Shown here in pieces: positions 21,113 through 64,000 of a stretch of 64,000 nt of DNA. Numbering within the stretch: position 1 is the stretch's first letter; every line of letters starts with the position of its first letter. The position numbers and the translations under genes were made by a program. Origin of the DNA: a virus; IMG/VR virus record IMGVR_UViG_3300011116_000834, positions 32,001-96,000 of that record; one strand, given 5' to 3'. The notes under the pieces are model-generated. The model saw only the letters and a list, made by a program, of their open reading frames with translations, had not been told where the DNA came from and did not search any database.

Positions 21113-21126
21113 TTGGAAACAATAAA

Positions 21127-24213: not shown

Positions 24214-26762
24214 GTAGTAGCGCAATAATCAATTTTATTGTATCTGGTTTATCTGGAAATGATGGTGCTGCTGGTCCAACTGGACCCACAGGATCAACAG
24301 GATCGACTGGTCCAACTGGTCCAACTGGTCCTCTTGGACGATATTTTGTATCGTCTGTTGCATCAGGTAATTCATTGATTCTTACATTTTCCGATGGAAC
24401 AACTGCTTCATTAGTAGGAAGTTTCAAGGGAGCAACTACTGCTGATAAATCTGCTGGAATTGTTCGTGGAGGAAATACAGGAACAAATACAACCAATGGT
24501 GGATTGCTGTACAGTGTCTCTGGAGGAACATTTAGTTTTAAAGGTGTATGTGCTTATGGTTCTTTACGAGCATCTTTGACTGGTGCCAATTCAGAATATA
24601 TTTCAATCGATAGCATTTATTATGGCAAGGATGTTCTTGGAAATTATACACCCGCGACTCTTGTAGCGCGCGATCTATTGTATATTGGTGAAAAAACTAG
24701 TGCATATGGTGCAAATCTAAAACATAGAAGCGATATAGGATTTGCAGGTCTATGCGGTGCATTTGATTTTTCATACACACAATACAATGCGGGAGCAAGT
24801 GCAGATACCAGCACACATTTAAACGCTGGTTCCAAGATATATTCATATGGTCCATTACGCAGAGGAAGCGTGATTGATGGAAGCACTCTGGGAATTATTG
24901 TTGATGCACAAAAAGGTGGTGTATTCAATCTAAGAACACCAATTGGCATACAAGGAATAACAGGAAACTTCAAAGTAAATGAAGTTGCTTCGATCACTCT
25001 TGTCATTGATTCTGATAATGTCTGGCATTTCCCAGAAAACATATACTTTGGACCAGATGAAAATTATCTTTCTTGTGGTAAGAACATAATAGGTCTTCTT
25101 ACATATGATGGAGGAAAGACCTGGTTGGCAACCCCATCTCATCGTGGTCATGGAATAGAAAACATTGGAAGACAATGCATTCCTGGTGCTTTATATGGAT
25201 CATGTTGCTATACAAAAGCAGATGGCACGCTCAATTGCAAGGATTATACCACTTCCGAGGAATGTGATAAATTTTTTGGAACATTCCATGCAGCACAATC
25301 ATGTGAACAAACATGTGGCGATGTCAATAGTATTTGTTGTGCAAATGGAAATTGTATTTCTGGAGTATCAGTTACTGAATGTGAAAAATTCGGTGGCGAT
25401 TACTGGTCGAATGTAACATGCGATGATTATAATCCAAATGGTTCCAATATACCAGATCAGGTTCTTTATATCAGTCCAGAGGATGTAAAGGCACAAGGAA
25501 GATTCTGCTATGATCCTTGCGGTGAACCAACAGTATGCTGCAAAGATGGTAGATGTCTTGGCAACTACACTAGAATTCAATGTGAATTTTTTCTTGGTGG
25601 AAAATCCTTAACTGGTGCTAGCTGCAATGATGTTGATTGCTGCAACCATACTTCAATACCAGGAGCATGCTGTACCTGTACAACAAATCCAGATTCCACA
25701 ATTACTTCTTCGTGTGCATCCAACCTAACTTACACACAATGCAAGGAAACTGGTGGAGTATTCATGGGTCCAGGAAAACAATGTAATGAAGTAAGTTGTG
25801 GGTGTGTATGCAGTGGAAGCAGTGGCGGAACTCCAACAGATACAGGTGCATGTTGCAATGCATCTCTTGGCATATGCAATGATGGAGTGACTATAAATCA
25901 ATGCACTGCTGCTGGATTTATTTTCACACAAGGAGCAGCATGTTCTGATGTGTGTTCATCGTCTACTAATGGAATTTGCTGTAAAGATGGAACATGTCTT
26001 TCTACTGCAACAAATAGTGCTTCTTGCATTAGTGCTGGTGGCAATTGGTTGGGTCCAGTTCAATTTGCATATAATGGCACAGTTAAAAATTATGTTTTTG
26101 GTTCAAATGAAAACGATTGTGAACTATGTGCATTATCTAGACCATATTTTAGCATAATCGATCCTGGTAGTTGTTATCCAAATATAGAATTTGGAAGAAT
26201 TCCTACAGATATATCATTTATCGATGCAACCTATAGTTCCGATATACTTTATAGCGGGTTATTGAATATTTATGGTACTGTGTACACCAATACAAGAGAT
26301 CAACTGATTGAGATCTTAACATGTCCAAGTACTGATGCAATTGATGCTGCCATATATTCTGCGGCAACACTTATTTTTAATAATTCTGGGTGGTCTGTGG
26401 GAATGGGATGTCCAAAATCGTGCTGTCAATGCAATGGAGCAAGTGCTGTAAATTGCGGACCATATGGAACAGCAACATCACTTGATCAGATATGCAATAG
26501 TCAAGACTTGTGTTCACCTGGATATTTAGCAATTGCACCTGGAGAATCATGTGGTGGACTTGGGCAAGCTGGTGGTGGAGGAGGAGGCGGTGGTCATTCT
26601 CCATGCTCACCATCCTCATCGTGTGCGAATGAATATATTCCTCCGCCAAATTCTGGATTCCTTGATGCGTATGTGAAGAATGTAAAAGTAACCATAAATA
26701 ATGAAGTACTTTGTCTTCCAATTATTTGCGATGATTGCACTGGTTACGAATTCTGCGAGTAA
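24210..26762 (+). CDS. Cys-rich tail fibre-like protein with collagen-like N-terminus and about six CC modules
   Basis: Likely GTG start at 24210 (GTGA overlap with the upstream stop); GPTGSTG repeats; 'W.FP......LS....IIGLLTYDGGKTW' fibre domain; GSCC, SICC, TVCC, GACC (x2) and GICC modules; poly-Gly near the C-terminus. Confidence 0.6.
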   Translation: MSSSAIINFIVSGLSGNDGAAGPTGPTGSTGSTGPTGPTGPLGRYFVSSVASGNSLILTFSDGTTASLVGSFKGATTADKSAGIVRGGNTGTNTTNGGLLYSVSGGTFSFKGVCAYGSLRASLTGANSEYISIDSIYYGKDVLGNYTPATLVARDLLYIGEKTSAYGANLKHRSDIGFAGLCGAFDFSYTQYNAGASADTSTHLNAGSKIYSYGPLRRGSVIDGSTLGIIVDAQKGGVFNLRTPIGIQGITGNFKVNEVASITLVIDSDNVWHFPENIYFGPDENYLSCGKNIIGLLTYDGGKTWLATPSHRGHGIENIGRQCIPGALYGSCCYTKADGTLNCKDYTTSEECDKFFGTFHAAQSCEQTCGDVNSICCANGNCISGVSVTECEKFGGDYWSNVTCDDYNPNGSNIPDQVLYISPEDVKAQGRFCYDPCGEPTVCCKDGRCLGNYTRIQCEFFLGGKSLTGASCNDVDCCNHTSIPGACCTCTTNPDSTITSSCASNLTYTQCKETGGVFMGPGKQCNEVSCGCVCSGSSGGTPTDTGACCNASLGICNDGVTINQCTAAGFIFTQGAACSDVCSSSTNGICCKDGTCLSTATNSASCISAGGNWLGPVQFAYNGTVKNYVFGSNENDCELCALSRPYFSIIDPGSCYPNIEFGRIPTDISFIDATYSSDILYSGLLNIYGTVYTNTRDQLIEILTCPSTDAIDAAIYSAATLIFNNSGWSVGMGCPKSCCQCNGASAVNCGPYGTATSLDQICNSQDLCSPGYLAIAPGESCGGLGQAGGGGGGGGHSPCSPSSSCANEYIPPPNSGFLDAYVKNVKVTINNEVLCLPIICDDCTGYEFCE

Positions 26763-50749: not shown

Positions 50750-50785
50750 AACCATAAATATTTTCTGTTAATAATGGAGTTTATT

Positions 50786-51211: not shown

Positions 51212-52054
51212 ATGAAGCAAATGCAACTCATTGGCGGTGGTTTTGTTCCTCAATATTCATCATGTTCCGATCTCAAACCAAAGCAATTTGAATGGACATC
51301 TGAAGATCATCCTGTAAAGGTATTTGTCGATTCTGCAATAGTCCCAGGTATGGGATATCAGAAGAAACCAGGAGAGCGTAAAATAGCATGGGTATGCGAA
51401 TCCCGTGCTATTTTTCATTCATGGTGCATTCCTCCTGATGTTTGGGAGGCAAATATTATAAAAATTGCAGAAGCATATGACTTATTATTTGTATCAGATA
51501 AAATATGGGTCGGTAAAGCACCAAATATTCGATATTGTCCAGCAGGAAGCAATCTTCCTTGGATAAAGAATCAACAGGTTCATTCCAAGACCAAACTTGT
51601 ATCGATGGTTGCTTCTGGAAAGAAGATAACATTTGGTCATCATATTCGTCATGAAATTGCAGAAAAATTCAAAGATAAGGTTGATATCTTTGGCGGTGCT
51701 GCCAACTCAAATAGAATTGGCGGAAATTCAGCACCATGGACAGATAAAGAAGATCTAATACTTCCATATATGTTCTCAATCGTCATTGAGAATGACAAAT
51801 ATAACACATACTATACAGAGAAGGTAACCGATTGCTTTGCAACGGGAACTATACCGATCTATTGGGGAACATCTGAGATTAATGAAATCTTCAATTCTGA
51901 TGGAATAATACAATTAACTCCAGATTTTGATCCAAGTCTCTTGACAAAAGAACTTTATGAAAGTAAATTGAATGCAGTAAATGATAACTTTACTAGGGTA
52001 AAGAATCTTGTATCTGCTGATGATCAATTATATACCTTAATCCATGAAAACTGA
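51212..52054 (+). CDS. GT10-family (alpha-1,3-fucosyltransferase-like) glycosyltransferase
   Basis: 'YMFSIVIEN....YYTEK..DCF..GTIPIYWG'. Confidence 0.8.
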   Translation: MKQMQLIGGGFVPQYSSCSDLKPKQFEWTSEDHPVKVFVDSAIVPGMGYQKKPGERKIAWVCESRAIFHSWCIPPDVWEANIIKIAEAYDLLFVSDKIWVGKAPNIRYCPAGSNLPWIKNQQVHSKTKLVSMVASGKKITFGHHIRHEIAEKFKDKVDIFGGAANSNRIGGNSAPWTDKEDLILPYMFSIVIENDKYNTYYTEKVTDCFATGTIPIYWGTSEINEIFNSDGIIQLTPDFDPSLLTKELYESKLNAVNDNFTRVKNLVSADDQLYTLIHEN

Positions 52055-52706
52055 AATTGTATCATTCTATTGCGATATCGATAATCGCACATATTATAGC
52101 GATCACGCAAGAAGATTGCGTATTAATTGCAATGAAAATAATATTCCACACGATATTCGCGAATTATCATCCCGTGGAGAATATCGTTTGAATTGCCTAG
52201 CGAAACCAAATTTTATTCTTTCTATTTTGGAAGAAAAGAAGAAACCATTTGTATGGTTGGATGTCGATTCCATCATTCATAATGAACTTTCCATTTTTGA
52301 TGATCTAGATGAAAAATGTGATATAGCATTTGCATATCAAGGATTTCCTCCAAACACAAATGTAAATTTGCCAAAGGCATCTCCGATATATTTGTCATAC
52401 AAACCAATAGTATTGGAATTTATAAAATACTGGGTTGAAAGGTGCAAGGCAAATGAAAGCAATCCATCAGTAAAAGTATTTGATCATGAAATTCTACTTG
52501 GTGAAGTTTTTCCAACTTTCCTTCCAAAAATGAAAGTAGGTATGCTAGGAATGCCATATGCAATATGGCCTGGCACGCAAATACCAGAAAATTGCAGACC
52601 AATGATCACCATGGGAATTGCAGATGGGGTTTCTAAAGAAAAATCCTTAAAGGAAATGGGAATGAATGATGATATGATTCGTTTTAACTTGGTGGGAAAT
52701 CAATGA
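52044..52706 (+). CDS. Putative nucleotide-diphospho-sugar transferase (GT-A, DxD)
   Basis: 'KP.FIL..L', 'VWLDVD', 'F...W', 'DHE'. Confidence 0.6.
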   Translation: MKTEIVSFYCDIDNRTYYSDHARRLRINCNENNIPHDIRELSSRGEYRLNCLAKPNFILSILEEKKKPFVWLDVDSIIHNELSIFDDLDEKCDIAFAYQGFPPNTNVNLPKASPIYLSYKPIVLEFIKYWVERCKANESNPSVKVFDHEILLGEVFPTFLPKMKVGMLGMPYAIWPGTQIPENCRPMITMGIADGVSKEKSLKEMGMNDDMIRFNLVGNQ

Positions 52707-53296
52707 AATTCATTAATTATTATTATGATAAGGATCCAAGCAAATCCTCATTTTATGAGGATTGTTATTTGAATCTAAAAAAGCAATTGAATTCATTCGG
52801 ACACGAACTAATTGCAGATAACATTGACTTTGAAAGAATGGGATTGTCCGCTTATGATAAATTGAATTTATATAAACCAACATTTATATTGGAAAAACTT
52901 GATCAATTGCAAGAATCTGTTGCATGGATAGATGCAGATACAAATGTATATGGTGCTATAACAGAATTTCAAAATCTTGATTGTGATATTGCCTTTGCAA
53001 CACGCGAACATGATGGAAAAACACCACATGCTGCATTGATCTATTTTGGAAATACCAAAAAATCAAGAGAATTTTTAACGAGATGGAAAGAATTATGCGA
53101 TGACAAGAGATTGGATCTTGACTGGAAATGTACAGAACATTGTATTCTTGTCGATCTATTCAATGAATTAACCGATTCATTTAAAATTATAAATTTTTAT
53201 AATCTTGCAAGTATATCAAGAAATACCAAAGTAAAAATAGGTATCAGTCCTGCTGGATGGGAGTACGAAAGAAATAAAAATGCTACTAGAAGTTAA
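52703..53296 (+). CDS. Putative nucleotide-diphospho-sugar transferase, related to the upstream gene
   Basis: 'KPTFIL..L', 'AWIDAD', 'CDIAFA', 'FL..W...C'; same motif layout as 52044-52706. Confidence 0.6.
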   Translation: MKFINYYYDKDPSKSSFYEDCYLNLKKQLNSFGHELIADNIDFERMGLSAYDKLNLYKPTFILEKLDQLQESVAWIDADTNVYGAITEFQNLDCDIAFATREHDGKTPHAALIYFGNTKKSREFLTRWKELCDDKRLDLDWKCTEHCILVDLFNELTDSFKIINFYNLASISRNTKVKIGISPAGWEYERNKNATRS

Positions 53297-53396
53297 TAAC
53301 TTACTTGATGAGTATGATGTTTTTATAACATCATCTATTAAATAAGAACCAGTTGTTATAAAAATGAAATCAAATTAAATAAAAAATGAGGGTAAT

Positions 53397-54062
53397 ATGA
53401 GATATAAAGTATCAAATACTTGTCAAGTTAAAGATTTATCACTTATTTACGAAAAATATTTTAATAATGATATCGATAAAACATTCATAGAGGTTGGTGC
53501 ATTGGATGGAGAAAGTTTTAGCAATACATCATGCTTGGCGGATATTGGATGGAATGGATATTATATTGAACCATATCCACCAGCTGTACATGCTTGTTCG
53601 CAAAGACATTCTAAAAATAATGTTAAAGTGTTCAATTTAGGAATTTCAGCAACCGAAGGTGTTGTTGAATTTTTTTTTGGTGGAGCATTAACAACTAGCA
53701 ATCCAGAAATGTTAGATGCTTATAAGCAAATAAATTGGTCTTCTGGATCTTTTGCAAATGGACAAACATTTAAATGTGAATGTGTAACATTAGATTCATT
53801 TATATCTCAACAAAATATAGAAAAATTTGATTTACTTGTCGTAGATGTTGAAGGAAATGAATATGATGTGTTCAGTTCTTACTCCTTTGCGGTTAAGCCA
53901 AAGATGATTATTGCAGAATTAGAATACAATCATCCAGATTTTAAAGATAGAGATCATATTAGAAATAAAATGCTAGAAACTAGAACTAAAATTCTCAATA
54001 ATGGATATATTGAAATTTATGTTGATGATATCAATTCTATTTTTGTAATGGAGAATGATTGA
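53397..54062 (+). CDS. FkbM-family SAM methyltransferase
   Basis: 'FIEVGALDG...SNT', 'GW.G..IEP', 'TLD', 'DLLVVDVEG.E'. Confidence 0.88.
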   Translation: MRYKVSNTCQVKDLSLIYEKYFNNDIDKTFIEVGALDGESFSNTSCLADIGWNGYYIEPYPPAVHACSQRHSKNNVKVFNLGISATEGVVEFFFGGALTTSNPEMLDAYKQINWSSGSFANGQTFKCECVTLDSFISQQNIEKFDLLVVDVEGNEYDVFSSYSFAVKPKMIIAELEYNHPDFKDRDHIRNKMLETRTKILNNGYIEIYVDDINSIFVMEND

Positions 54063-54856
54063 TGATTAGTGTAATTTTGATGGGTAGAATGGGAAACAAT
54101 TTATTTCAAATTGCTGCTGCTCTTGCTCTTGCAAAAAAACACAATACGGTATTGCATATTCCGATTCCTTCATGGAATAATACTACATATTCATATTTAA
54201 ATTGTTTTAAGATGATGGATGTCCATTTTGGAAATCCTGCAAGTATGGTTTACAAGGAACAGCATTTTTTCTACAATGAACTATTTGATATCTTGCCAGA
54301 TAATGTCCATTTATATGGATATTATCAATCAGAAAAATATTTTAAATCCTATGAATCATTGATACGATCAAACTTTGAATTTAATGATACTGTTGTTCAG
54401 TCAACTAAAGCAAAATTGGATACTTATGATATTGATTACAAAGAAGCAACAGCAATTCATTTAAGAAGAACAGATTATCTTACAATTCAACATGCGCATC
54501 CTATTCCATCTTTGGATTATTATAAAGATGGATTGAAATTGATGAATGCAAAAAATGTTATTGTATTTTCTGATGACATCGAATGGTGTCGTGCTAATAT
54601 AAAGATCGAAGGTATTAATTTTATTTTTAGCGATATGCCACAAGAAGAAACCATATGCGCAATGACAATGGTAAAAAATCTAGTCATTGCAAATAGCACA
54701 TTTTCATGGTGGGGTGCCTGGTTAAATAAACATCCTGAAAAACAAGTAGTATATCCAAAACAATGGTTTGGAAATACATTACCATATAGAGAACTTGATA
54801 TAAATCATGAGGTATGCACTAAAGACATACCATGTGCTGGTTGGATAGGATTATGA
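54062..54856 (+). CDS. GT11-family alpha-1,2-fucosyltransferase-like protein
   Basis: 'GRMGNNLFQ', 'GYYQSEKYF', 'HLRRTDY', 'FSDDIEWC', 'IANSTFSWWGAWL'. Confidence 0.9.
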   Translation: MISVILMGRMGNNLFQIAAALALAKKHNTVLHIPIPSWNNTTYSYLNCFKMMDVHFGNPASMVYKEQHFFYNELFDILPDNVHLYGYYQSEKYFKSYESLIRSNFEFNDTVVQSTKAKLDTYDIDYKEATAIHLRRTDYLTIQHAHPIPSLDYYKDGLKLMNAKNVIVFSDDIEWCRANIKIEGINFIFSDMPQEETICAMTMVKNLVIANSTFSWWGAWLNKHPEKQVVYPKQWFGNTLPYRELDINHEVCTKDIPCAGWIGL

Positions 54857-55596
54857 AAAAATATCTGATTAATTATGCAGCAAAGGGGACTCATAATTGG
54901 GGAGTAAATTCTCCACCAAATGCAGGATATGTCATTGCACAAAAAATAAATAGTGAAACAGGAATACATGTTGCTGGATTTGATGAAGTTATAAATTTCA
55001 ATAGAGATTCATTACCTACATCATTTTTTCAAACCCATAGCGAGCATTTCAAGCACACCCGTGGTGCTGGATATTGGATATGGAAATCTTTTATTATAAA
55101 AACTCAATTGGAAAAAATAAATGATGGTGATTTATTGATGTATTCGGATTCTGGATGTCATTTTGTCAAAAATATGAAACCAATATTTGACATTATGATT
55201 GAAAGTAAAAATAAAAATCTAGTATTTAATTTGACAAATCCAATTTGTACTGAAAAAACATGGACAAAAAGAGATTGCCTTGTTGAATTGACTATGGATA
55301 CTCCAGAAATTCATTGCTCTCAACAAATAATGAGCACCTTTTTCATTTGCATTAAAAATGAATTCAATAAATGGTTCATAGATGAGTGGTATAAATATAG
55401 TTCAAATTTTCATTTAATTGCAGATGAAATCATATCTCCATCTACAAATCCAAATTACCCTGAATTTTCAGAACATAGACACGATCAATCGATTTTTAGT
55501 TTGCTTTCTAAAAAACATGATGTATTATCAATGAACGATATAACCCAACATGGTATGCAGGATTATTATATCGAACATTCAAGAAGAAGCAATTAA
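54853..55596 (+). CDS. Putative glycosyltransferase-like protein
   Basis: 'RGAGYW.WK..II', 'Y.DSG', 'E..WTK.D' and 'EHRHDQS..SLL', a motif set typical of glycan-locus hypothetical proteins; ATG at 54853. Confidence 0.55.
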   Translation: MKKYLINYAAKGTHNWGVNSPPNAGYVIAQKINSETGIHVAGFDEVINFNRDSLPTSFFQTHSEHFKHTRGAGYWIWKSFIIKTQLEKINDGDLLMYSDSGCHFVKNMKPIFDIMIESKNKNLVFNLTNPICTEKTWTKRDCLVELTMDTPEIHCSQQIMSTFFICIKNEFNKWFIDEWYKYSSNFHLIADEIISPSTNPNYPEFSEHRHDQSIFSLLSKKHDVLSMNDITQHGMQDYYIEHSRRSN

Positions 55597-56363
55597 TGCA
55601 AATACAAAAAGTTATTCACTCAAGTGATGATAAAGATTATTACTTGGATTTCTGGCCAATTGTATCCAAGATATGGAAATTAAAATTCAAAATTGAACCA
55701 GTACTGATTCATTTTGGAATCAAAGAAGTTTCAACTGAATATGGAACTGTCATTAGACCTGGTATTCTTCCAAATGTACCAATAAATGTACAATGTCAAT
55801 TATCAAGATATTGGTTGCCTTTAACGGAACCAGATACCATCTGGATGACCTCCGATATAGACATGCTTCCTATTTCTAAAAAATATTTTATCGATGCCAT
55901 TTCAAGCATATCTGATGATAAATTTATTTCCATGAATCATGATATACATGAACATCATCCAAATATAAACTATTCATGTTGCTATAATGTAGCAAAAGGA
56001 TCAACCTTCATGGAGATACTAAAATCTTCCCATATATGGATCGAATTCATGAAAGGTGATTTTTGGAAAAACGACAATACAAATCACAGTCCAAATGGAT
56101 TAACGGAAAAATTTCCTCATTGGTCTATTGATGAAAAATGGTCAAGTCAATTCATAAATCAATTTGATCGTTCACGGATAGTGCATCTAGCACGCGATTG
56201 CGGCAAGCATATGTGCCGTCGAATAGATAGAGATAGATGGGAATGGAATAAAGAATCAATCTTATCTGAATATTATTTCGATTGTCATTGCATTCGTCCT
56301 TATGCGAATCATAAACAAGAAATAGATGCAATTGTGGAGCATATTTTACATGATTCTATATGA
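55596..56363 (+). CDS. Putative glycosyltransferase-like protein (DxD)
   Basis: 'YLDFWP', 'SDIDMLP', 'W..DE', 'RIDR', 'D.H..RPY'; glycan-island context. Confidence 0.5.
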   Translation: MQIQKVIHSSDDKDYYLDFWPIVSKIWKLKFKIEPVLIHFGIKEVSTEYGTVIRPGILPNVPINVQCQLSRYWLPLTEPDTIWMTSDIDMLPISKKYFIDAISSISDDKFISMNHDIHEHHPNINYSCCYNVAKGSTFMEILKSSHIWIEFMKGDFWKNDNTNHSPNGLTEKFPHWSIDEKWSSQFINQFDRSRIVHLARDCGKHMCRRIDRDRWEWNKESILSEYYFDCHCIRPYANHKQEIDAIVEHILHDSI

Positions 56364-57072
56364 TGATTTTATTACTGGAGATAAATTTCTTGATATTGAA
56401 TTTTTTGGATGCAAATCTAAAATTGATTATATCTCCAGACTGCCTTCATCTTGTAGTCGTATATTGACCCATAATGGAGATCTTCCAGTAACCGACGATG
56501 CATTGAGATTATTCCATAATTTGACATCATGGTTTGGTCAAAATATAATGACTATTGATTCTAGATGCATTGCATTGCCAATTGGATTGGAAAACGATTA
56601 TGTCGAGGGTTCAATCGATAAGAAAAAATTATTATTTGCCTATATGCAAAAACATCAGGTTCCTTCAAGACTTGCTTATCTGAATTGCAATACAAAAACA
56701 TATAAAACAGATAGAGAAGATGCCTATAGTAAAATTAAAAATTGTACTAAAGTTATGCATCGTACCATCTCTAATGAGCAATACTATTCTGATATACTGG
56801 ATCACGATTTCATCATATGCCCACGCGGTAATGGATTGGATTGCCATAGAAACTGGGAAGTTCTCTATCTTAATAGATATCCAGTCATGAAACGATATCA
56901 TGGTCTTGAACTTGTATATAAAGATCTTCCTGTGGTGTTTGTAGATGACTGGGAAGAAGTCACAGAGGATTTATTGAATAAAAAGAAAAATGAATTCTTT
57001 TCTACTACTTTTAATAAAGAAAAATTAAAATTTTCCTGGTGGAAAGATTTAATTATTAATCAAATAATATAG
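56350..57072 (+). CDS. Exostosin/GT47-like glycosyltransferase
   Basis: 'THNGD', 'LPIGLEN', 'F.ICPRGNG.DCHR.WE.LYL...P', 'LP...V.DW'. Confidence 0.7.
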   Translation: MILYDDFITGDKFLDIEFFGCKSKIDYISRLPSSCSRILTHNGDLPVTDDALRLFHNLTSWFGQNIMTIDSRCIALPIGLENDYVEGSIDKKKLLFAYMQKHQVPSRLAYLNCNTKTYKTDREDAYSKIKNCTKVMHRTISNEQYYSDILDHDFIICPRGNGLDCHRNWEVLYLNRYPVMKRYHGLELVYKDLPVVFVDDWEEVTEDLLNKKKNEFFSTTFNKEKLKFSWWKDLIINQII

Positions 57073-57081
57073 GAATATAAT

Positions 57082-57672
57082 ATGAAAACTTATATGCAAA
57101 TAGGTGCAAATATTGGGACTGACGATTTTTATAATGTTTGCAATCAGGAATCAAATAAATGTAATATTTATTTGATTGAAGCTAATTCAAAATTGATACC
57201 AACTTTAAAAAAAAACTATGAATCTTTAACTTCACGCCACACTATTCATTTCCATGAATGTGGCATAGTTCCTGATAAAATCAAAAATTGTAATAAATTA
57301 TATTTGTATGATAATAATATGGATTTAAGTTCTGTAATAAATAGAAATTCTTTTCAACAAATATCAGAAATAATAAATTTTATTCCAATAACATTTAATG
57401 ATTTTTGCATTACCAATAATATAACAGAAATTGATTATCTATCAATAGATACTGAAGGATTAGATTATGAAATTCTTTTAAGTATTGATTTGAATTCAAT
57501 TAATATTAAAAAAATTGTATTTGAAAAATGGAGTTATGTGAATGATGATTTGGATGGAAAGGTCCAAACAGGAAATATTCTTATTGCTGCTATTATAGAA
57601 AAATTTAAAAATTATAATTTAAATGAATTGATAATTGATAATATGTCATCTTTTAGTTTGACACAAAAATGA
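57082..57672 (+). CDS. FkbM-family SAM methyltransferase
   Basis: 'QIGAN.G', 'LIEAN', 'IDYLSIDTEGLD..IL'. Confidence 0.82.
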   Translation: MKTYMQIGANIGTDDFYNVCNQESNKCNIYLIEANSKLIPTLKKNYESLTSRHTIHFHECGIVPDKIKNCNKLYLYDNNMDLSSVINRNSFQQISEIINFIPITFNDFCITNNITEIDYLSIDTEGLDYEILLSIDLNSINIKKIVFEKWSYVNDDLDGKVQTGNILIAAIIEKFKNYNLNELIIDNMSSFSLTQK

Positions 57673-58355
57673 AAACTATACTAGTATTAGTTCAATCTAG
57701 CAATCAATCACCATATGATGCAATGCTAGAAAAACAAAAAAATACATGGAATTTGATTTCTATTGATGGAGTATCCACAATATTTTATTATGGATCACTT
57801 GATATAGAAAATAACACACTCAATGATGATGTTTTGATTTTAAAAACTTCAGATATAAATTATAATAGAACATTTAAATTGAAACTTGCTTTAGATTTTA
57901 TCTGGAATATGAAATGGGATTATGTAATTAGAACAAATTCATCTTCTTATATTGACAAGAAACGACTATTGAATAAAATTCAAGCATTGCCTGAGAATAA
58001 ATGTTTTTTTGGAAAAACAGTTGCTGATTGTATATCAGGAATTGGAATGATTTTTAGTAGAGATGTTGTGGATATTTTAAGAAAAAACATAGATTCTAGT
58101 TTAGAAAACAATAGCGATCATGATGATGTAATGGTTGCACATATACTAAAATCAAATGGTATTCCAATTATTGGAGATGGATCATTGGTATTTTATAACC
58201 ATGATTGTAATTTTACAGATTTTATTAATTCAATTTCTCTAACAGATACAGATCCATATTGCTATAGGTGTAGACCTAATTGTGCAATAGATCAAAATAG
58301 ACATAAAGATCTAGAAGCGTTTGAAAATTTATTTAATTTTTTAAAGAACACCTAA
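57669..58355 (+). CDS. Putative GT31-like glycosyltransferase
   Basis: 'DYVIRTN.SSY', 'SG.G...SRDVV', 'DDV'. Confidence 0.5.
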   Translation: MKTILVLVQSSNQSPYDAMLEKQKNTWNLISIDGVSTIFYYGSLDIENNTLNDDVLILKTSDINYNRTFKLKLALDFIWNMKWDYVIRTNSSSYIDKKRLLNKIQALPENKCFFGKTVADCISGIGMIFSRDVVDILRKNIDSSLENNSDHDDVMVAHILKSNGIPIIGDGSLVFYNHDCNFTDFINSISLTDTDPYCYRCRPNCAIDQNRHKDLEAFENLFNFLKNT

Positions 58356-59632
58356 TGAATTCTAATTATAATATTAAAACCGAATGCAGATGTTGCAAAT
58401 CCAAGAATTTAAATGAAGTATTGGATCTCGGAGAACATCCTCTTGCAAATTCATATCATTTTGGAACGAATGATCTTGCAAGATATCCATTAAAATTAAA
58501 TGTATGCACTGATTGCTTTCATTGTCAATTAAGCATTGTTGTCAATCCAGATGAAATGTTTAAACACTATTCATATCAAAGTGGAATTCCAAAAACATTT
58601 AACAAATATTGTGAATGGTTTAGTGAATATGTTGAAGATAATATTTCCAAAATTGGTAGTGTTCTTGATATTGCATGCAATGATGGTACTCAACTAGAAA
58701 AGTTTAAAAAAAGAGGATGGAGAACATTTGGAATCGATCCTGCAACAAACTTGAAGGAAAAATCAAAACAACATGCAGAGCAAATTATTGATGATTATTT
58801 CAATATAGATTCAATCGACAAACTCTCAATAAAACAATTTGATGCAATTACTGCGCAAAATGTATTTGCTCATTTAGATGATGTTGATCAGTTTCTACAA
58901 GATTGTAAAATTATAATGACTGATAATAGTAGATTATACATTCAAACTTCTCAAGCAAATATGATAGATGATCGTCAATTTGATACGATATATCATGAGC
59001 ATTTATCATATTTCTCTGTAAGATCAATGAAGACACTTTGTGAGAGAAATAATCTTCTATTGCTTGATGTTAGTATAAATCCTATCCATGGAGAAAGTTA
59101 TATTTTTGTTATTGGAAAAACAGGCAAGATAAACCAATCTGTGAATTCCATGATTGATGTGGAATCAAAAAATGGAAGATACTTGATAGAAACATATAAA
59201 ATATATGCTAAAGCTGTATATGCAATAATAGAAAATGCTAATGCAATAATCAACCAATATATGAAAAATGGTTATTTGATTGTTGGATATGGTGCTGCTG
59301 CAAAAGCAAATACATTTTTAAATTTTTCAAAAATTAAACCACATTTTATCATCGATGATACTCCAACTAAGCAAGAAAAATTGACACCAGGCACTAATTG
59401 CATGATCATGAATAGAAAATTCATAGAAAAACTAACAAATAATGTATTGTTCATAACATTAGCATGGAATTTTCATGATGAACTGAAGAGCAATATCGAA
59501 GAATCATTGTCATATACAAAATTTGCAAAAAGATTTTCATATAAGATAATGAGATATTACCCAGACATCGAAGTATCCTCACTAAATATACGAAGCAATC
59601 CAAATTCTGAAGTATTGCATCATCCAGTATAA
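58355..59632 (+). CDS. NDP-hexose C-methyltransferase (zinc-binding N-terminus, C-methyltransferase C-terminus)
   Basis: 'CRCC...LDLG..PLAN', 'C..C...QL', 'DIACNDG', 'NVFAH', 'DTIYHEH.SYFS', 'GYGAAAK', 'LAWNF'. Confidence 0.88.
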
Positions 59633-59645
59633 TAAGGTTTATATA

Positions 59646-60686
59646 ATGAAAAAAGTGGCATTAATTACAGGCATTTCTGGTCAAGACGGATCATATCTAG
59701 TGGATCTCCTCATATCCAAGGGATATGAAGTTCATGGTATCATTCGTAGATCATCATCTTTTAACACTGCAAGACTTGAACATCATATTCAAAATCCAGA
59801 GGTATATAACAAATCTTTCTTTTTGCATTATGGCGATCTAACTGATTATACTACAATAGAGAAGTTGATTGCTAGATGCAATCCAGATGAGATATACAAT
59901 CTTGGAGCACAGAGTCATGTTCGTGTTTCATTTGATGCTCCAGTATATACGGGAGAAACCGTAGGTATTGGAACATTGAATATGCTTGAAGCGATTCGTT
60001 CCTATGAACAAATCTCTGGTAAAAAAGTAAGGTATTATCAGGCATCCTCAAGCGAGATGTTTGGAAAGGTACAAGAGGTTCCTCAAAAGGAAACTACTCC
60101 ATTCTATCCTCGTTCACCATATGGTTGCGCAAAGGTATATGCACATCATCTTACGGTGAACTATCGCGAATCGTATGGTCTGCACGCATCGTGTGGCATT
60201 TTATTCAACCATGAAAGTCCAAGACGCGGAGAGACATTCGTAACTCGTAAAATCACCAGAGCGGTTGGTAGAATTTATCAGGGACTTCAGAAGAAACTCT
60301 ATCTTGGTAATCTGGATGCTCTGCGAGACTGGGGATTTGCTGGCGATTATGTCGAGGCGATGTGGTCGATGCTACAGCAAGAAACACCAGATGATTATGT
60401 AATTGCAACTGGCAAGATGATCACAGTTCGTGAATTCTGTGAAAAGGCATTTGCAAGATATAGCATGGATTACCGCGACTATGTCGAAGTGGATGAGCGA
60501 TACTACCGTCCAGCAGAAGTAGATCAACTGCTTGGAGATCCAACAAAGGCGAAGGAAAAACTTGGTTGGGAACCAAAGGTAAACATCGATGAACTCATCA
60601 ATATGATGGCAGATCACGATTTTCAATTAGCAAGAAGAGATTTCGTGCTTCATGTACATGACAACAAACTCAATCCCATTCTCTGA
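59646..60686 (+). CDS. gmd: GDP-mannose 4,6-dehydratase
   Basis: '[14 protein letters not shown]', '[12 protein letters not shown]', '[10 protein letters not shown]', 'PRSPYG.AK', '[18 protein letters not shown]', 'RDWG.A.DYV', 'RPAEVD.LLGD'. Confidence 0.97.
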
Positions 60687-60694
60687 TATAAATA
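60687..60694 (+). promoter_or_regulatory. T4 late promoter before the GT2-TPR gene
   Basis: Exact TATAAATA immediately after the gmd stop, followed by SD aagga. Confidence 0.8.
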
Positions 60695-60712
60695 CAATAA
60701 AGGATCTATAAG

Positions 60713-61930
60713 ATGAAGAAAACCGTTGCCTTGTGCATGATCGTAAAGAATGAGTCTCATATCATTCATGAATGCTTGAATTCGATTTATCAGTATGTCG
60801 ATTACTGGGTCATTTCCGACACAGGATCAACTGACGGTACTCAAGATATCATTAAGAAGTTCTTTGAAGAGAAGGGCATTCCTGGTGAACTTCATCAGGA
60901 TGAATGGAAGAACTTCGGTCATAACCGATCATTAGCACTTCGTCATGTAGATGGCAAGGCGGATTATGCATGGATGATCGATGCCGATGATAAGGTAGAA
61001 GGATCATTCAAACTTCCAGAAAACATGGAAGCAGATGGATATGTTGTTAGAATGGGAAGAGAAGAATTCTCATGGTGGAGAACTCAGATTTTTAAGACCG
61101 AGGCAAAATGGGAATATCGTGGAGTTCTCCATGAATATCCATTCTGCACTACAAAGGAACAAGCAATTCTGACTAAAGTGGAAGGAAAATATAATATAAA
61201 TGCTCGTACTCTTGGTGCAAGAAATGTCGGTATCAGTATAATTGAAAAATATACAAGAGATGCAGAACTATTGGAAAAAGCACTGATTGATGAACCAACC
61301 AATACACGATATCAGTTCTATCTTGCTCAATCATATTTTGATTCTCAACAATATGAAAAGGCAATTGAGGCATATCTGAAAAGAGCATCTATGGGTGGAT
61401 GGCAGGAAGAAGTATTTTACTCTCTGTATAGAGTTGCCATATCGCGCGCAATGTTGGATAAACCATGGGCGGAAATTCAAGCATCATTTTTAGATGCATA
61501 TAATTATAGACCAATTCGTGCAGAACCATTGATTCATATTGCTCAGGTTCTAAGAACTAAATTTGATCAACCAGCGGCAGCATTTGTCTTTGCACGCATT
61601 GCTGCGGAGATTCCATATCCTCAGAATGAAATTTTGTTTGTACCCGATCATCTTTATAAATTTGCCGCTTTAGATGAATTGGGTGCCACGGCGCATTCTG
61701 CTGGTAGACCAGAATTGGGATATCTGGCATGCAAGAAATTACTTGAAGAGGGGCGTTGTCCAACTGATCAAATTGAAAGAGTTCAGAATAATTTTAATCA
61801 TTATCGCATGATCATGGAAAAGATCGGTGAGCAACAAGCATTGATGCAAAAACAAATAGAGGCACAATCAGTAGTAAAACCACAAGAAAAGACAAAAAAG
61901 TTCAAAGAGCGAAAGAAAGTTAAAAGTTGA
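60713..61930 (+). CDS. GT2-family glycosyltransferase with C-terminal TPR repeats
   Basis: 'LCMIVKNE', 'DTGSTDGT', 'FG.NR..AL', 'IDAD', 'GVLHE'; TPR-like 'RYQFYLAQSY.D....EKAI..Y' and 'RAEPL'. Confidence 0.88.
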   Translation: MKKTVALCMIVKNESHIIHECLNSIYQYVDYWVISDTGSTDGTQDIIKKFFEEKGIPGELHQDEWKNFGHNRSLALRHVDGKADYAWMIDADDKVEGSFKLPENMEADGYVVRMGREEFSWWRTQIFKTEAKWEYRGVLHEYPFCTTKEQAILTKVEGKYNINARTLGARNVGISIIEKYTRDAELLEKALIDEPTNTRYQFYLAQSYFDSQQYEKAIEAYLKRASMGGWQEEVFYSLYRVAISRAMLDKPWAEIQASFLDAYNYRPIRAEPLIHIAQVLRTKFDQPAAAFVFARIAAEIPYPQNEILFVPDHLYKFAALDELGATAHSAGRPELGYLACKKLLEEGRCPTDQIERVQNNFNHYRMIMEKIGEQQALMQKQIEAQSVVKPQEKTKKFKERKKVKS

Positions 61931-61938
61931 TATAAATA
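61931..61938 (+). promoter_or_regulatory. T4 late promoter before the right-hand structural cluster
   Basis: Exact TATAAATA directly after the GT2 stop codon. Confidence 0.8.
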
Positions 61939-61953
61939 ATGCTATAGACTACT

Positions 61954-62148
61954 ATGGCATTTCCATCTAATCCAATTCAAGGAACCACATACGACAATAA
62001 CGGTCGTATGTGGTCTTTTAATGGATATGCATGGGATAAAATACAGGTGACTGGTGGAGGTGGCATTGTTGGTAATTATGTTTCCACATTCAATGGGTTG
62101 ACAGGAGATGTTGTTTTTGGTATAAATATCGATGGTGGAACTTATTAG
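61954..62148 (+). CDS. Small virion/fibre-associated protein
   Basis: 'FPSNP..G..Y...G..W.F.G..W', 'VSTFNGLTG.V' and 'IDGGTY' motifs common in phage fibre proteins. Confidence 0.6.
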   Translation: MAFPSNPIQGTTYDNNGRMWSFNGYAWDKIQVTGGGGIVGNYVSTFNGLTGDVVFGINIDGGTY

Positions 62149-62156
62149 GAGAAACT

Positions 62157-62588
62157 ATGCCAGCTTCAAGATACGACATATATGCAGAACAAGGGAGTAC
62201 TTGGAAATTTCATTTAACTTACAAATATTCGGGTGGCACAGGAATTGATCTTTCAAATTTTCATGGTGCCATGCAGGTTCGTAGATCCTCTAAAGATGAC
62301 AAGGTTTTGCTTTATCTGACCGATTATGGAGTTACTGGTGGTGGAATAACTGGTGATTTTACTCCTAATATCGATGGAATTGCTGGTATTGGTGGTATAA
62401 GTTTCAATACTTCGATTGCAGGTGCTACTGGATTTACTGGTGGTATATTTTTTAGAACAGACAAGACAACAATGAAAAATATACCACCAGGAAAGCATTT
62501 CTATGATTTTGAATTAACCAATACTTTGGGAGAAGTTCAACGACTCATAGAAGGAACATTTGAAGTTCCAAGAGAAATTACGAGATAA
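62157..62588 (+). CDS. Virion structural adaptor protein (BppU-N-like Ig fold)
   Basis: 'EQGST', 'DLS....MQVR', 'YD.EL......V.RLIEG...V..EITR'. Confidence 0.6.
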
Positions 62589-62590
62589 TA

Positions 62591-64000
62591 ATGTCAAATT
62601 CGAATGATCAGGTAATACTTGTTGTTACCACATTCAAAGAGACCAATACTGTAGATACAAATAATAATGTATCCAATATCGTCGTTTCAAAAAATCAACC
62701 CGAAACAACTCTGGTTGTAACTAATAATCCTCCTACAGTAAATAATATAACAGTTAGCAATATCAATGCTTCTGAGTTGATAATTCAACCCCCAACAAGC
62801 ATAAATGTAATTGCTTCTACGATAACATCCAGCACAATACTTACTGCAACTCCATTAGGTGTTGCTTCTTCTGGTCCACAAGGTATTCAAGGAGTTACAG
62901 GACCCACTGGTGGCACTGGATCTACTGGACCTACTGGTGGCACTGGTGCTACAGGATCTGGTTATACTGGAATTAATATTTCTAATGGATATCTTTGGAT
63001 ATCGCCAGTAGATAATACTGGTATTAAAGGTGCATCATTCTCTCTTGGTTATGTGATTGGATCTACTGGTTCTACTGGACCTACTGGTGGTACTGGTTCT
63101 ACTGGACCTACTGGTGGCACGGGTTCTACAGGATCTGGTTATACTGGAATTAATATTTCTAATGGATATCTTTGGATATCGCCAGTTGGAAATGATGGAA
63201 TTAAAGGTACATCATTTTCTTTGGGTTATGTGATTGGATCTACTGGATCTACTGGACCTACTGGTGGTACTGGTTCTACTGGACCTACTGGTGCTACGGG
63301 ATCTGGATATACTGGAATTAATATTTCTAATGGATATCTTTGGATATCTCCAGTTGGAAATGATGGAATTAAAGGTGCATCATTTTCTATTGGTTATGTG
63401 ATTGGTTCAACTGGTGCTACTGGACCTACTGGTGGCACTGGTGGCACTGGTGCCACTGGACCTACTGGTGGCACTGGTGCAACTGGATCTGGTTATACTG
63501 GAATTAATATTTCTAATGGATATCTTTGGATATCTCCAGTTGGAAATGATGGAATTAAAGGTACATCATTTTCTTTGGGTTATATCATTGGATCTACTGG
63601 AAATACTGGAAATACAGGTAATACAGGAAACACAGGCAATACAGGAAATACTGGATCTGGTTATACTGGAATTAATATTTCTAATGGATATCTTTGGATA
63701 TCTCCAGTTGGAAATGATGGAATTAAAGGTGCATCATTTTCTATTGGTTATGTGATTGGTTCAACTGGCAATACTGGTAATACTGGCAATACTGGTAATA
63801 CAGGTAATACTGGAAACATAGGAAATACTGGTGCTACGGGATCTGGATATACTGGAATTAATATTTCTAATGGATATCTTTGGATATCGCCAGTAGATAA
63901 TACTGGTATTAAAGGTGCATCATTTTCTATTGGTTATGTGATTGGATCTACTGGTTCTACAGGCAACACTGGTAATACGGGCAATACTGGAAATACTGGA
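62591..64000 (+). CDS. Collagen-like fibre protein, partial (runs off the right edge)
   Basis: Not in the ORF track because it has no stop. ATG 62591 gives [14 protein letters not shown]..., then [19 protein letters not shown] and repeated [19 protein letters not shown] modules; frame open to the end. Confidence 0.85.
62875..64000 (+). repeat. Tandem repeat: ~35-aa conserved module alternating with G-x-T triplet runs (6 copies visible)
   Basis: ggatctgg(t/a)tatactggaattaatatttctaatggatatctttggatatc starts at 62954, 63131, 63299, 63485, 63653 and 63839 (periods 177, 168, 186, 168, 186). Confidence 0.95.

Follow-up and report, generated by a model that had tools for sequence, protein, structure and literature searches.

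A candidate phage-encoded system for O-glycosylation of virion proteins in a T4-like phage

Downstream of regA, a T4-like phage carries a set of genes that we interpret, at a probability of roughly 0.6, as a phage-encoded protein O-glycosylation system for its own virion; judging from the sequence, it is probably the particle, rather than the host surface, that the phage coats with sugar. We hypothesize that a glycosyltransferase combining a GT2 domain with TPRs (GT2-TPR) is made late, alongside the structural proteins, and places the first sugar on Thr in G-x-T contexts of collagen-like fibres, like SgtA on BclA3. The enzyme might also act on G-x-T-G/A sites scattered over other outer proteins of the virion. 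The adjoining low-GC island would be a swappable cassette encoding soluble glycosyltransferases, enzymes that methylate sugars and a deoxy-sugar pathway that starts from GDP-mannose; these would supply activated sugars and build and cap the glycan. Such a cassette would vary between phages in the way O-antigen clusters vary between strains, with the priming enzyme and its place beside the fibre module kept. We found no published account of such a system for T4-like phages.

The phage is uncultured and aquatic, and is represented by a 108-kb record (IMGVR_UViG_3300011116_000834), of which a window of 64,000 nucleotides, the whole stretch of DNA analyzed, is described here (Table 1). No sign of lysogeny was seen. 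Directly after regA lie 12 tightly packed plus-strand ORFs (51212-60686), most of which overlap or are separated by a few bases, with a GC content of 0.28–0.31 compared to 0.36–0.39 in the flanks. The GT2-TPR gene comes next, and after it further late promoters together with genes for a small Ig-like protein and a G-x-T collagen fibre of 940 aa. The sequence-only reading had described 12 contiguous glycan-related genes. Contiguity holds, whereas Pfam places seven of the 12 in sugar-pathway families, two more (52044, 55596) probably belong there on weaker glycosyltransferase leads from ESM Atlas, and three (52703, 54832, 57669) have no assigned family. Pfam recovered the predicted GT10, GT11 and methyltransferase genes (PF00852, PF01531, PF05050, PF08484); a proposed GT47-like enzyme corresponds to the exostosin/GT47-like match at 56326 (PF24785), barely above its cut-off, and no GT31-like enzyme was found. 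The ORF at 52044..52706, without a Pfam or NCBIfam match, has ~70% identical copies in the islands of relatives. For 55596..56363, one matching viral cluster is auto-named glycosyltransferase, and GT8 and Nucleotid_trans are the nearest named families (0.94). The C-methyltransferase-type enzyme combines a zinc-binding N-terminus, a SAM domain and a Methyltransf_14 C-terminus (Methyltransf_13/14). A PF01370 search of the whole 108-kb record had one match, leaving the dehydratase at 59646..60686 as its sole SDR epimerase/dehydratase; a GDP-fucose synthase was not found. Membrane spans are absent from all island proteins.

Table 1. Annotated features of the glycosylation island, the adjoining fibre module and candidate acceptor genes
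Feature	Position	Strand	Evidence or remark
Virion protein, 1848 aa, further possible acceptor	2483..8029	+	GPP/GPT collagen-like segment
Three large paralogous fibre genes, further possible acceptors	17288-21112, 21127-24213, 24171-26762	+	
Late-promoter-like CATAAATA	50753..50760	+	14 nt before regA
GT10 (fucosyltransferase-family) glycosyltransferase, island gene 1	51212..52054	+	PF00852 E 3.2e-09, 37 bits, cut-off 23.9
Probable GT-A nucleotide-sugar transferase (lead only)	52044..52706	+	ESM Atlas 0.98, Nucleotid_trans/GT34-like clusters
Island ORF without assigned family	52703..53296	+	No match in Pfam, PHROGs, NCBIfam, PDB sequences
FkbM-type methyltransferase	53397..54062	+	PF05050 E 1.2e-20
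GT11 (alpha-1,2-fucosyltransferase family) glycosyltransferase	54059..54856	+	PF01531 E 2.6e-22
Island ORF without assigned family	54832..55596	+	No match
Probable viral GT-A glycosyltransferase (lead only)	55596..56363	+	ESM Atlas 0.99 to viral clusters
Putative glycosyltransferase, RXYLT1 C-terminal-like (exostosin/GT47-like)	56326..57072	+	PF24785 E 1.3e-06, 28.4 bits, cut-off 27
FkbM-type methyltransferase, second copy	57082..57672	+	PF05050 E 4.4e-13
Island ORF without assigned family	57669..58355	+	No significant match
NDP-sugar C-methyltransferase type enzyme	58355..59632	+	PF08484 4.6e-24, PF08421 3.3e-17, PF13489 7.5e-17
GDP-mannose 4,6-dehydratase	59646..60686	+	PF16363 E 8.6e-146
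Exact T4-type late promoter TATAAATA	60687..60694	+	19 nt before GT2-TPR ATG
GT2-TPR protein-type glycosyltransferase (SgtA/GmaR/SunS class)	60713..61930	+	PF00535 1.9e-12 and several TPR models
Second exact late promoter TATAAATA	61931..61938	+	16 nt before ATG of 64-aa gene (61954)
Fibre-like miniprotein, 64 aa	61954..62148	+	FNGxTG motif and C-terminal IDGGTY in common with collagen fibre
Third exact TATAAATA	62121..62128	+	29 nt before 143-aa gene, within end of 64-aa gene
Ig-like beta-sandwich virion protein, 143 aa	62157..62588	+	phrog_1084, Gly/Thr-rich loop
'Beads-on-a-string' collagen-like fibre, 940 aa (start)	62591..64000	+	Continues 1,413 nt past window end

Pfam and TPR models confirm the GT2-TPR identity earlier assigned to the gene at 60713. 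Its product is predicted to be soluble, and the motifs DTGSTD and DxD (D90-A-D92-D93) are invariant across 25 homologues. The best matches in a PDB sequence search were GmaR (E 3.5e-10), a flagellin O-GlcNAc transferase, SunS, itself phage-borne (SPbeta), and ThuS; the best NCBIfam model was the SunS family at 48.9 bits, far under its 350-bit cut-off. The AF2 model (pLDDT 90) aligned with SunS and ThuS over ~400 columns (E 3e-18 to 3e-15) at a structural-alignment identity of 12–19%, and led the next fold, TarS (6e-08), by about ten orders of magnitude. On this model and by sequence, the enzyme resembles protein glycosyltransferases, with SunS, ThuS and GmaR closest. All three likewise combine a GT-A domain with TPRs, and they modify proteins or peptides in the cytoplasm. 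Unlike SunS and ThuS, the phage enzyme has no Cys-rich glycocin-like peptide encoded nearby, and the anti-repressor role of GmaR has no counterpart in this phage. The 64-aa neighbour, which has homologues in several related loci, lacks cysteine.

A close parallel is SgtA of Clostridioides difficile, a 358-aa protein with a GT-A domain and four TPRs, encoded just upstream of bclA3, that in vitro transfers beta-O-GlcNAc onto Thr of collagen-repeat peptides (PMC7157674). Both enzymes are soluble GT-A (GT2-type) proteins with TPRs, ~360–400 aa long, beside a G-x-T-rich collagen-like gene. We place the phage enzyme provisionally in the SgtA subfamily on the basis of its architecture, of shared relatives and of the nine N-terminal residues that a published primer implies for SgtA; that N-terminus, M-I-T-I-S-L-C-M-I, fits the conserved start of the GT2-TPR family, (I/V)-(S/A)-L-C-M-I-V-K-N-E. 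The phage enzyme differs in its longer TPR region and basic C-terminal tail. BclA3 is a collagen-like glycoprotein of the exosporium, whereas the putative substrates here are virion fibres. In this phage, which is lytic and T4-like, the pair is preceded by a late promoter and adjoins a variable sugar cassette of 12 genes.

Cellular homologues of GT2-TPR number more than 590 and are 38–46% identical to it over residues 2–360. Only one kind of neighbour recurs beside them, a collagen-like gene (36/80 loci), Thr-dominated in ~23 of those loci and often less than 1 kb away. A Collagen HMM confirmed the adjacent gene in 13 of 16 genomes checked, and in several genomes of 3–5 Mb it is the sole or main collagen gene. 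The contexts are chromosomal, not prophage, and bacteria from several phyla have the pair of GT2-TPR and Thr-rich collagen-like gene, in an arrangement that matches that of sgtA and bclA3. At some loci (L209), extra glycosyltransferases adjoin the pair.

Exact late promoters had been proposed before the GT2-TPR gene (60687) and before the structural genes (61931); both sites carry TATAAATA, and the former is kept in relatives, most of the 34 having TATAAATA or (N)ATAAATA at the same distance. The raw octamer count in the window is not above chance (9 observed, 7.0 expected), but the placement is, with 11 of 18 plus-strand ATAAATA sites falling 9–45 nt before ORF starts, a zone covering 3.2% of the window (P ~1e-12). 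The remaining late-motif sites lie ahead of genes for baseplate, neck, sheath and tube. Because the motif is kept in relatives and marks virion genes in the window, the sequence supports GT2-TPR as a late gene, made together with structural proteins. No clear intergenic late promoter was found inside the island in this window; transcripts starting at CATAAATA before regA could run through into it. Comparable motifs precede regA in two relatives (L009, L027), with weaker forms in three others (L020, L023, L025).

The G-x-T collagen fibre expected 3' of the second promoter is the ORF at 62591, with Thr third in 79 of its 94 G-x-y triplets. The Ig-like gene is co-conserved directly 3' of GT2-TPR and directly 5' of collagen fibres; the best fold matches of its product are 139–140-aa tail-tip/baseplate proteins of T5 and DT57C (TM 0.60–0.62, E 3e-06), and a role as a fibre-docking collar-type protein is probable. 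G-x-T collagen segments are present in at least five virion proteins of this phage, including an N-terminal one in each of the three paralogous fibres (17288..26762). Outside collagen runs, G-x-T-[GA] occurs 75 times in virion proteins against 23.0 expected, a 3.3-fold, Thr-specific enrichment that could in part stem from Gly/Thr-rich structural motifs in fibre proteins, compared to 6 against 4.5 in non-virion proteins. A check of whether GT2-TPR and G-x-T fibres co-occur across related phages came out against it: among the 29 loci where GT2-TPR adjoins the Ig-like gene, a Thr-rich collagen lies just 3' in only 10, another collagen type in 7 and none in 12, and therefore the adjacent fibre is not the only or obligatory acceptor. 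Collagens elsewhere in five long relatives are mainly charged G-E-R/K, and more distant phages have the Ig-like gene and collagen fibres with no GT2-TPR within 6 kb. The earlier proposal that GT2-TPR glycosylates G-x-T virion proteins is favoured by the enzyme class, the kept late motif, the bacterial pairing and the SgtA-BclA3 precedent.

Across 36 related phage contigs, island content is mosaic, whereas GT2-TPR (48–79% identical, syntenic) is retained along with its position and late motif. None of the ~300 ORFs called on the GT2-TPR loci of these relatives appears to encode an integral membrane protein. The 25 commonest Pfam families among 144 island ORFs from 13 relatives include NDP-sugar enzymes, glycosyltransferases and methyltransferases, and no flippase, polymerase or ligase. 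The position of the island, the lack of membrane proteins and analogy suggest that its enzymes could extend and cap the glycan begun by GT2-TPR.

The same genes could instead remodel the host surface, with island and GT2-TPR altering LPS, capsule or a surface glycoprotein, for example to block superinfection. LPS and O-antigen work is the best-known setting of GT10 and GT11 enzymes, which, like GDP-mannose dehydratase and FkbM methyltransferases, are often part of O-antigen clusters. A clear late promoter is missing from the island itself, and soluble glycosyltransferases could act on host undecaprenyl-linked intermediates and borrow the host export machinery. However, this island and those of the relatives encode no flippase, polymerase, ligase, priming phosphoglycosyl transferase or Gtr-type membrane protein, the conserved enzyme is of a protein/peptide glycosyltransferase class whose bacterial homologues pair with collagen-like proteins and not LPS clusters, and its conserved late promoter would act late for altering a cell near lysis. 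We therefore consider host-surface modification unlikely, and less likely than virion glycosylation. It is nevertheless the published reading, as host O-chain modification, of comparable gene sets in T4-like phages from aquatic habitats, namely the 'LPS / cell-wall' clusters of P-SSM2, S-SCSM1 and S-SCSM2R and the pelagimyophage host-recognition cluster, whose hypervariable regions likewise mix tail-fibre genes, glycosyltransferases (GT10, GT11, GT2) and NDP-sugar enzymes; the portions of these papers available to us describe neither a conserved late GT2-TPR nor a collagen pairing (PMC7029224, PMC12801897). Capsid identity between the present phage and those phages is only ~55%, and psbA was not found in it.

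Function might also be split, with GT2-TPR adding a single sugar to fibres and the island an unrelated auxiliary cassette, modifying host glycans or metabolites, that shares an insertion hot-spot. Between regA and gp43, T4-like genomes have a general hot-spot for insertions, which holds many unrelated inserts (a dUTPase-like gene, a DNA methylase, a DUF1599 gene, fibres), and the GT2-TPR promoter is separate from the island. SgtA in vitro adds the first GlcNAc only, and enzymes extending the BclA3 glycan were not found beside sgtA (PMC7157674). Yet an island adjoins GT2-TPR in every relative with a visible upstream side, all these islands are glycan-related, and some bacteria have extra glycosyltransferases beside the pair. 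We regard a split as doubtful; position argues for a functional link. Far less probable is that the enzymes glycosylate modified phage bases, as T4 glucosyltransferases do. DNA hypermodification is a frequent role of phage glycosyltransferases (available text of PMC12801897), and a few kb further downstream come the DUF1599 'nucleotide modification associated' gene and the DNA methylase. Against it, no thymidylate-synthase-family hydroxymethylase was found in the record or in a 100%-complete and an 83%-complete relative; GT2-TPR is a GT-A-TPR enzyme of a protein-modifying class, not a T4-type GT-B; its promoter is late, not early; and its homologues pair with collagen genes.

Virion glycosylation by the phage itself has one established case among tailed phages. 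According to Freeman et al. (2023), as cited in later papers, mycobacteriophage glycosyltransferases, with methyltransferases, decorate virion proteins, the acceptors being capsid and tail-tube subunit C-termini and the gene sets small. The present phage differs in enzyme class, in its aquatic host group, in its putative collagen-type acceptor and in its large variable cassette.

What had been read from the sequence was confirmed at the locus: the 12 contiguous ORFs, with Pfam families for seven of them, the GT2-TPR gene, the exact late motifs and the G-x-T collagen fibre. The linear IMG/VR record (108,402 bp, estimated 60% complete), of which the window spans bases 32001-96000, represents a T4-like myovirus with recognisable portal, sheath, tube, baseplate wedge, neck, scaffold, large terminase and major capsid proteins, and gp45, gp44, gp62 and regA were recognised in the window. 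Its capsid protein shares no more than 56% identity with the capsid proteins of cyanophages and of one pelagiphage, and the phage collection contained neither near-identical DNA nor a close cultured relative. As psbA is missing from both this record and a complete 147-kb relative, identification as a cyanophage was dropped as unsupported. Downstream of the collagen fibre lie further fibre-like genes, followed by a dUTPase-like gene, a DNA methylase, DUF1599 and gp43. With regA before the sugar island and gp43 after the fibres, the entire block therefore occupies the regA–gp43 junction. The DNA polymerase gp43 itself appears split or truncated here (495 aa, with the exonuclease but just the first part of the polymerase domain, and a SpoU methylase next), compared with versions of 642–882 aa in relatives.

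Coordinates of features at the locus and in compared loci (window positions unless a locus handle is given)
Feature	Position	Observation
Counterpart of the island-proximal late motif of L009	51185-51211	Degenerate
Sugar island	51212-60686	12 plus-strand ORFs
GDP-mannose 4,6-dehydratase	within 58355-60686	
Late octamer TATAAATA	60687	Exact; 19 nt before the GT2-TPR start codon
GT2-TPR	60713-61930	GT2 domain, then TPR repeats (Pfam)
Late octamer TATAAATA	61931	Exact; 16 nt before the next start
64-aa ORF	61954-62148	
Late octamer TATAAATA	62121	Exact
143-aa gene	62157-62588	Ig-like, phrog_1084
Collagen fibre	from 62591	Runs past the window end; contains the stretch GNTGNTGNTG
Full collagen fibre	L002:2592-5414	940 aa
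gp43 ORF	L002:14186-15673	
Late octamer of a close relative	L009:~2290-2325	Exact; between regA and the first island gene
Bacterial collagen-like protein beside GT2-TPR	L146:2289-7263	Burkholderiales-type genome
G-x-C-[G/A] examples	39968-41452; 24171-26762; 10205-11347	First is the capsid protein, residue 151
Bacterial loci with clusters of GT2-TPR paralogues	L145, L155, L158, L169, L170, L175, L177, L178, L182, L185, L198, L200	

The GT2-TPR gene, which encodes the sole GT2 enzyme of the 108-kb record, is the centre of the argument. Its N-terminal domain matches PF00535 (E 1.9e-12), several TPR Pfam matches cover residues 182–225, and helices extend over residues 176–386 in the predicted structure. 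The nucleotide-sugar and DxD metal-binding motifs of a GT-A fold are present, with D90-A-D92-D93 and D36-T-G-S-x-D41 (DTGSTD) invariant in 25 sequences. Among proteins of solved structure, its nearest sequence matches are Listeria GmaR (E 3.5e-10), SunS (4e-08) and ThuS (3e-05). The top NCBIfam model is that of the SunS family (TIGR04195, an equivalog), but because the score is 48.9 bits against a cut-off of 350, GT2-TPR is a distant SunS relative and not a family member. An AlphaFold2 model built from 25 homologues (mean pLDDT 90) superposed over the whole chain, C-terminal helical-repeat domain included, on solved GT-A-TPR members. Compared with solved structures in Foldseek, it matched SunS (7msn, E 3e-18) and ThuS (7msk, E 3e-15) over about 400 columns, the next fold being TarS (6e-08). 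The closest relatives are cytoplasmic enzymes, all of which glycosylate proteins or peptides. GT2-TPR has the Kyte–Doolittle profile of a soluble enzyme, and no 19-residue window in it indicates a membrane span at a threshold of 1.6. Sequence and model together place it in the GT-A(GT2)-TPR protein glycosyltransferase class of SgtA, GmaR, SunS and ThuS, with predicted sugar transfer to Ser, Thr or Cys. The C-terminal 20 residues of the phage enzymes form a conserved basic tail (K-F-K-E/D-R-K-K) behind a low-confidence linker, which could bind nucleic acid, membrane or the assembling virion.

A collagen-like candidate acceptor lies close to the phage enzyme, the G-x-T fibre beginning 661 nt downstream of it in the window, and collagen-like genes also accompany its bacterial homologues. 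Homologues are present in metagenomes in the thousands and in bacterial genomes in more than 590 cases (38–46% identity over residues 2–360), from taxa including Mycobacterium, Thiothrix, Methylococcales, Burkholderiales, Myxococcota, Planctomycetota and Chlamydiota. When all genes within 8 kb were clustered across 80 bacterial loci, the single recurrent neighbour was a collagen-like protein. Of the 80 loci, 36 contained an ORF with 12 or more G-x-y triplets, in many cases less than 1 kb from the enzyme, and threonine dominated the third position (G-A-T, G-P-T, G-S-T) in about 23 of those 36. Because high-GC genomes can yield false Gly-rich frames, 16 genomes were checked with the Collagen HMM, which confirmed the adjacent gene in 13; in several genomes of 3–5 Mb it is the only or main collagen-like gene. 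Given one to five collagen-like genes per genome, chance adjacency is expected in well under 1% of loci. One myxobacterial genome carries two enzyme–collagen pairs. The contexts are chromosomal (HypF, prolyl-tRNA synthetase, pyruvate kinase), and one locus has additional GT2 and GT4 genes. In the Burkholderiales-type genome, a 1,100-aa G-A-T collagen-like protein stands beside GT2-TPR and behind an ShlB/FhaC-type transporter, which suggests a two-partner-secreted exoprotein, possibly glycosylated. Many Mycobacterium and other genomes contain two to four tandem or clustered GT2-TPR paralogues.

This pairing has a characterised counterpart in Clostridioides difficile. SgtA (358 aa, a GT-A domain with four TPRs) is encoded immediately upstream of bclA3 and in vitro transfers an initiating beta-O-GlcNAc onto Thr of BclA3 collagen-repeat peptides (PMC7157674), the same mechanism as proposed for the phage enzyme and fibre. 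Our comparison of SgtA (CD3350) with GT2-TPR used published architecture and primer-encoded termini; the nine N-terminal residues encoded by a published primer (MITISLCMI) match the conserved start of the GT2-TPR family.

The placement of late promoter motifs points to expression of GT2-TPR together with structural genes. By its sequence it qualifies as a T4-type late gene, with the promoter motif a short distance 5' of the start codon. The count of the exact octamer in the window shows no excess over chance; of the 18 plus-strand ATAAATA cores, 11 sit 9–45 nt upstream of ORF starts, a zone making up 3.2% of the sequence (P about 1e-12). Sites so placed elsewhere in the window lie in front of genes for baseplate, neck, sheath and tube. 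Most relatives carry the octamer or (N)ATAAATA ~20 nt ahead of the GT2-TPR start. In several of them regA, too, has a late-like motif in front of it, and one close relative has the exact octamer ahead of its island where the window's counterpart is degenerate; the islands could therefore be transcribed late, and island timing may differ between relatives.

The island is packed nearly gap-free and has a GC content of 28–31%, compared with 36–39% in its surroundings. It had been read as 12 glycan-related genes, of which the 12 contiguous ORFs stand: Pfam assigns seven (GT10, GT11, two FkbM methyltransferases, an RXYLT1_C-like domain just over the Pfam cut-off, a C-methyltransferase of the Methyltransf_13/14 type, and GDP-mannose 4,6-dehydratase at E 9e-146), and language-model leads point to GT-A transferases for two more. 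For the other three, permissive-threshold Pfam, NCBIfam, PHROGs and PDB sequence searches returned nothing usable, and for that reason we do not endorse the label of a GT31-like enzyme. The C-methyltransferase gene lies directly upstream of that for the dehydratase, the record's sole SDR-type sugar enzyme; no GDP-fucose synthase was found in the 108 kb, though two fucosyltransferase-family genes are present. One possibility is that the activated sugar is an unusual GDP-6-deoxyhexose, with a C-methyl group or some other change; another is that the host provides the reductase. No multi-span membrane protein is encoded in this island or in those of 36 related loci, and the membrane parts of phage seroconversion or O-antigen modification systems, whether GtrABC-type or Wzx/Wzy-dependent (flippase, bactoprenol-linked transferase, polymerase, ligase), are absent here.

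These 36 IMG/VR loci carry GT2-TPR relatives of 34–79% identity. In loci with visible flanks, regA is followed by a variable island, then by GT2-TPR and the 143-aa gene; next come either fibres or immediately the dUTPase-like gene, DUF1599 and gp43. The islands are all glycan-related, yet few of their genes are common even to phages with 76–79% identical GT2-TPR. Across the 144 island ORFs taken from 13 relatives, the most frequent Pfam families were NDP-sugar epimerases/dehydratases (25), FkbM methyltransferases (11), GT2 (10), DegT aminotransferases (7), GT10 (6) and C-methyltransferases (5); the top 25 families included no flippase, polymerase or ligase, and the relatives' islands contained no integral-membrane-like ORFs. 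The expected co-occurrence of GT2-TPR with G-x-T fibres held only in part. Neighbouring collagens are Thr-dominated in closer relatives (GT2-TPR identity at least 63%), whereas in more distant ones they are of the charged G-E-R/K/Q type or located elsewhere. A second set of 80 loci, collected via the 143-aa gene, yielded 29 dereplicated loci with GT2-TPR directly upstream; just downstream, 17 had a collagen (Thr-rich in 10, other in 7) and 12 had none. Strict pairing with a Thr-rich fibre was thus not found among related phages, and the adjacent fibre is a frequent, not obligatory, partner. In relatives without fibres at this position (L015, L017, L018, L021, L024, L027, L032), a conserved basic, Lys-rich protein of 71–80 aa with a KxKPxxxG motif follows the Ig-like gene and precedes the dUTPase-like gene.

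Several products of the fibre module and beyond are candidate acceptors. The full fibre consists of eight or so globular modules with G-x-T linkers between them, Thr being third in 79 of 94 triplets. The 64-aa ORF, with homologues in several related loci, shares an IDGGTY ending and an FNGxTG motif with the fibre C-terminus; it resembles a stand-alone copy of the fibre end and might serve in docking or capping. The idea of a glycocin-like peptide as substrate was dropped, as the small neighbouring ORF lacks cysteine and resembles a fibre fragment. The 143-aa protein, for which tblastn against phages gave no match, is predicted to be a beta-sandwich (pLDDT 82); its top structural matches are 139–140-aa tail-tip/baseplate proteins of T5 and DT57C (TM 0.60–0.62, E 3e-06), before generic Ig domains, and we take the T5 chain to be the p132 collar protein. 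Its gene is a steadier companion of GT2-TPR than the adjacent fibre and, where a collagen gene is present, directly precedes it; the product is probably a small virion protein docking collagen fibres.

An 1848-aa virion protein likewise carries G-x-T collagen segments, as do three large paralogous fibres. Outside collagen runs, virion proteins contain G-x-T-[G/A] 75 times, 3.3-fold the 23.0 expected when each protein is shuffled, and non-virion proteins contain it 6 times against 4.5; 60 of the 75 sites lack periodic Gly context. The 143-aa protein alone has 5 (0.38 expected). Other residues at the Thr place gave 0.4–1.9-fold, save Cys. The excess fits wider virion glycosylation, as supporting rather than decisive evidence, because structural Gly/Thr motifs of fibre proteins could also explain it. 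The major capsid protein has no such site (0.48 expected), and this count gave no support for it as a main acceptor. Virion proteins also show an excess of G-x-C-[G/A] (12 vs 4.0, small numbers); SunS and ThuS glycosylate cysteine.

We consider glycosylation of virion proteins primed by GT2-TPR the leading explanation, with a probability of about 0.6. The step from enzyme to collagen, as the sequence-only reading had it, is well supported; strict co-occurrence in phages failed, and we infer the role of the island. Aquatic T4-like phages have long been seen to carry sugar-pathway and 'LPS' genes, and published accounts usually interpret them, including cyano- and pelagimyophage sets similar to the present island, as tools for modifying the host surface (PMC7029224, PMC12801897). 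For this locus we regard that interpretation as improbable. It retains some weight, since soluble transferases could draw on lipid carriers and exporters of the host, but it does not account for the class of the enzyme, its conserved late promoter, the missing membrane components or the bacterial collagen pairing. The link between island and enzyme is positional, and the regA–gp43 junction collects many inserts, so that GT2-TPR might modify fibres while the island has another target, a division of function that we also think unlikely. Glycosylation of DNA, as by the T4 alpha/beta-glucosyltransferases, was rejected as highly improbable: PF00303 (thymidylate synthase family) is missing from this ~60%-complete record and from relatives that are 100% and 83% complete, leaving no hydroxymethylase, and GT2-TPR has the fold of a protein-modifying class and a late promoter.

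The locus thus suggests an alternative to the host-surface reading, in which the phage glycosylates its own fibres and perhaps the whole particle. More speculatively, and with considerable doubt, a large, abundant aquatic T4-like clade might coat much of the virion, beyond the collagen fibres, with complex methylated deoxy-sugar glycans primed at G-x-T-G/A by a conserved SgtA-like enzyme; 'LPS islands' would then be virion-serotype cassettes, like bacterial O-antigen clusters, swapped under selection on the particle surface. To our knowledge, mycobacteriophages are the sole established case of virion glycosylation among tailed phages, and its biological setting is similar to the one proposed here. 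If glycosylation primed by GT2-TPR is confirmed, the phenomenon would reach from mycobacteriophages to abundant environmental myoviruses, island hypervariability would amount to surface-glycan diversification, and the SgtA–BclA3-type pair would be a widespread module in bacteria of several phyla, in phages and, by fold, in giant viruses. It would also bear on host recognition, particle stability, losses to grazing and adsorption, and the reading of viral 'auxiliary metabolic genes' in metagenomes. The literature searched describes neither a conserved late GT-A-TPR gene ending a hypervariable sugar cassette beside a T4-like fibre module, nor the breadth of the enzyme–collagen pair over bacterial phyla, nor the fold-level relatives in giant viruses. 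In BFVD, Indivirus, Harvfovirus and several Pithovirus-like viruses carry GT2-TPR-like domains within longer proteins (34–39% identity, TM 0.82–0.84), so that members of the family occur in bacteria, in tailed phages and in Nucleocytoviricota.
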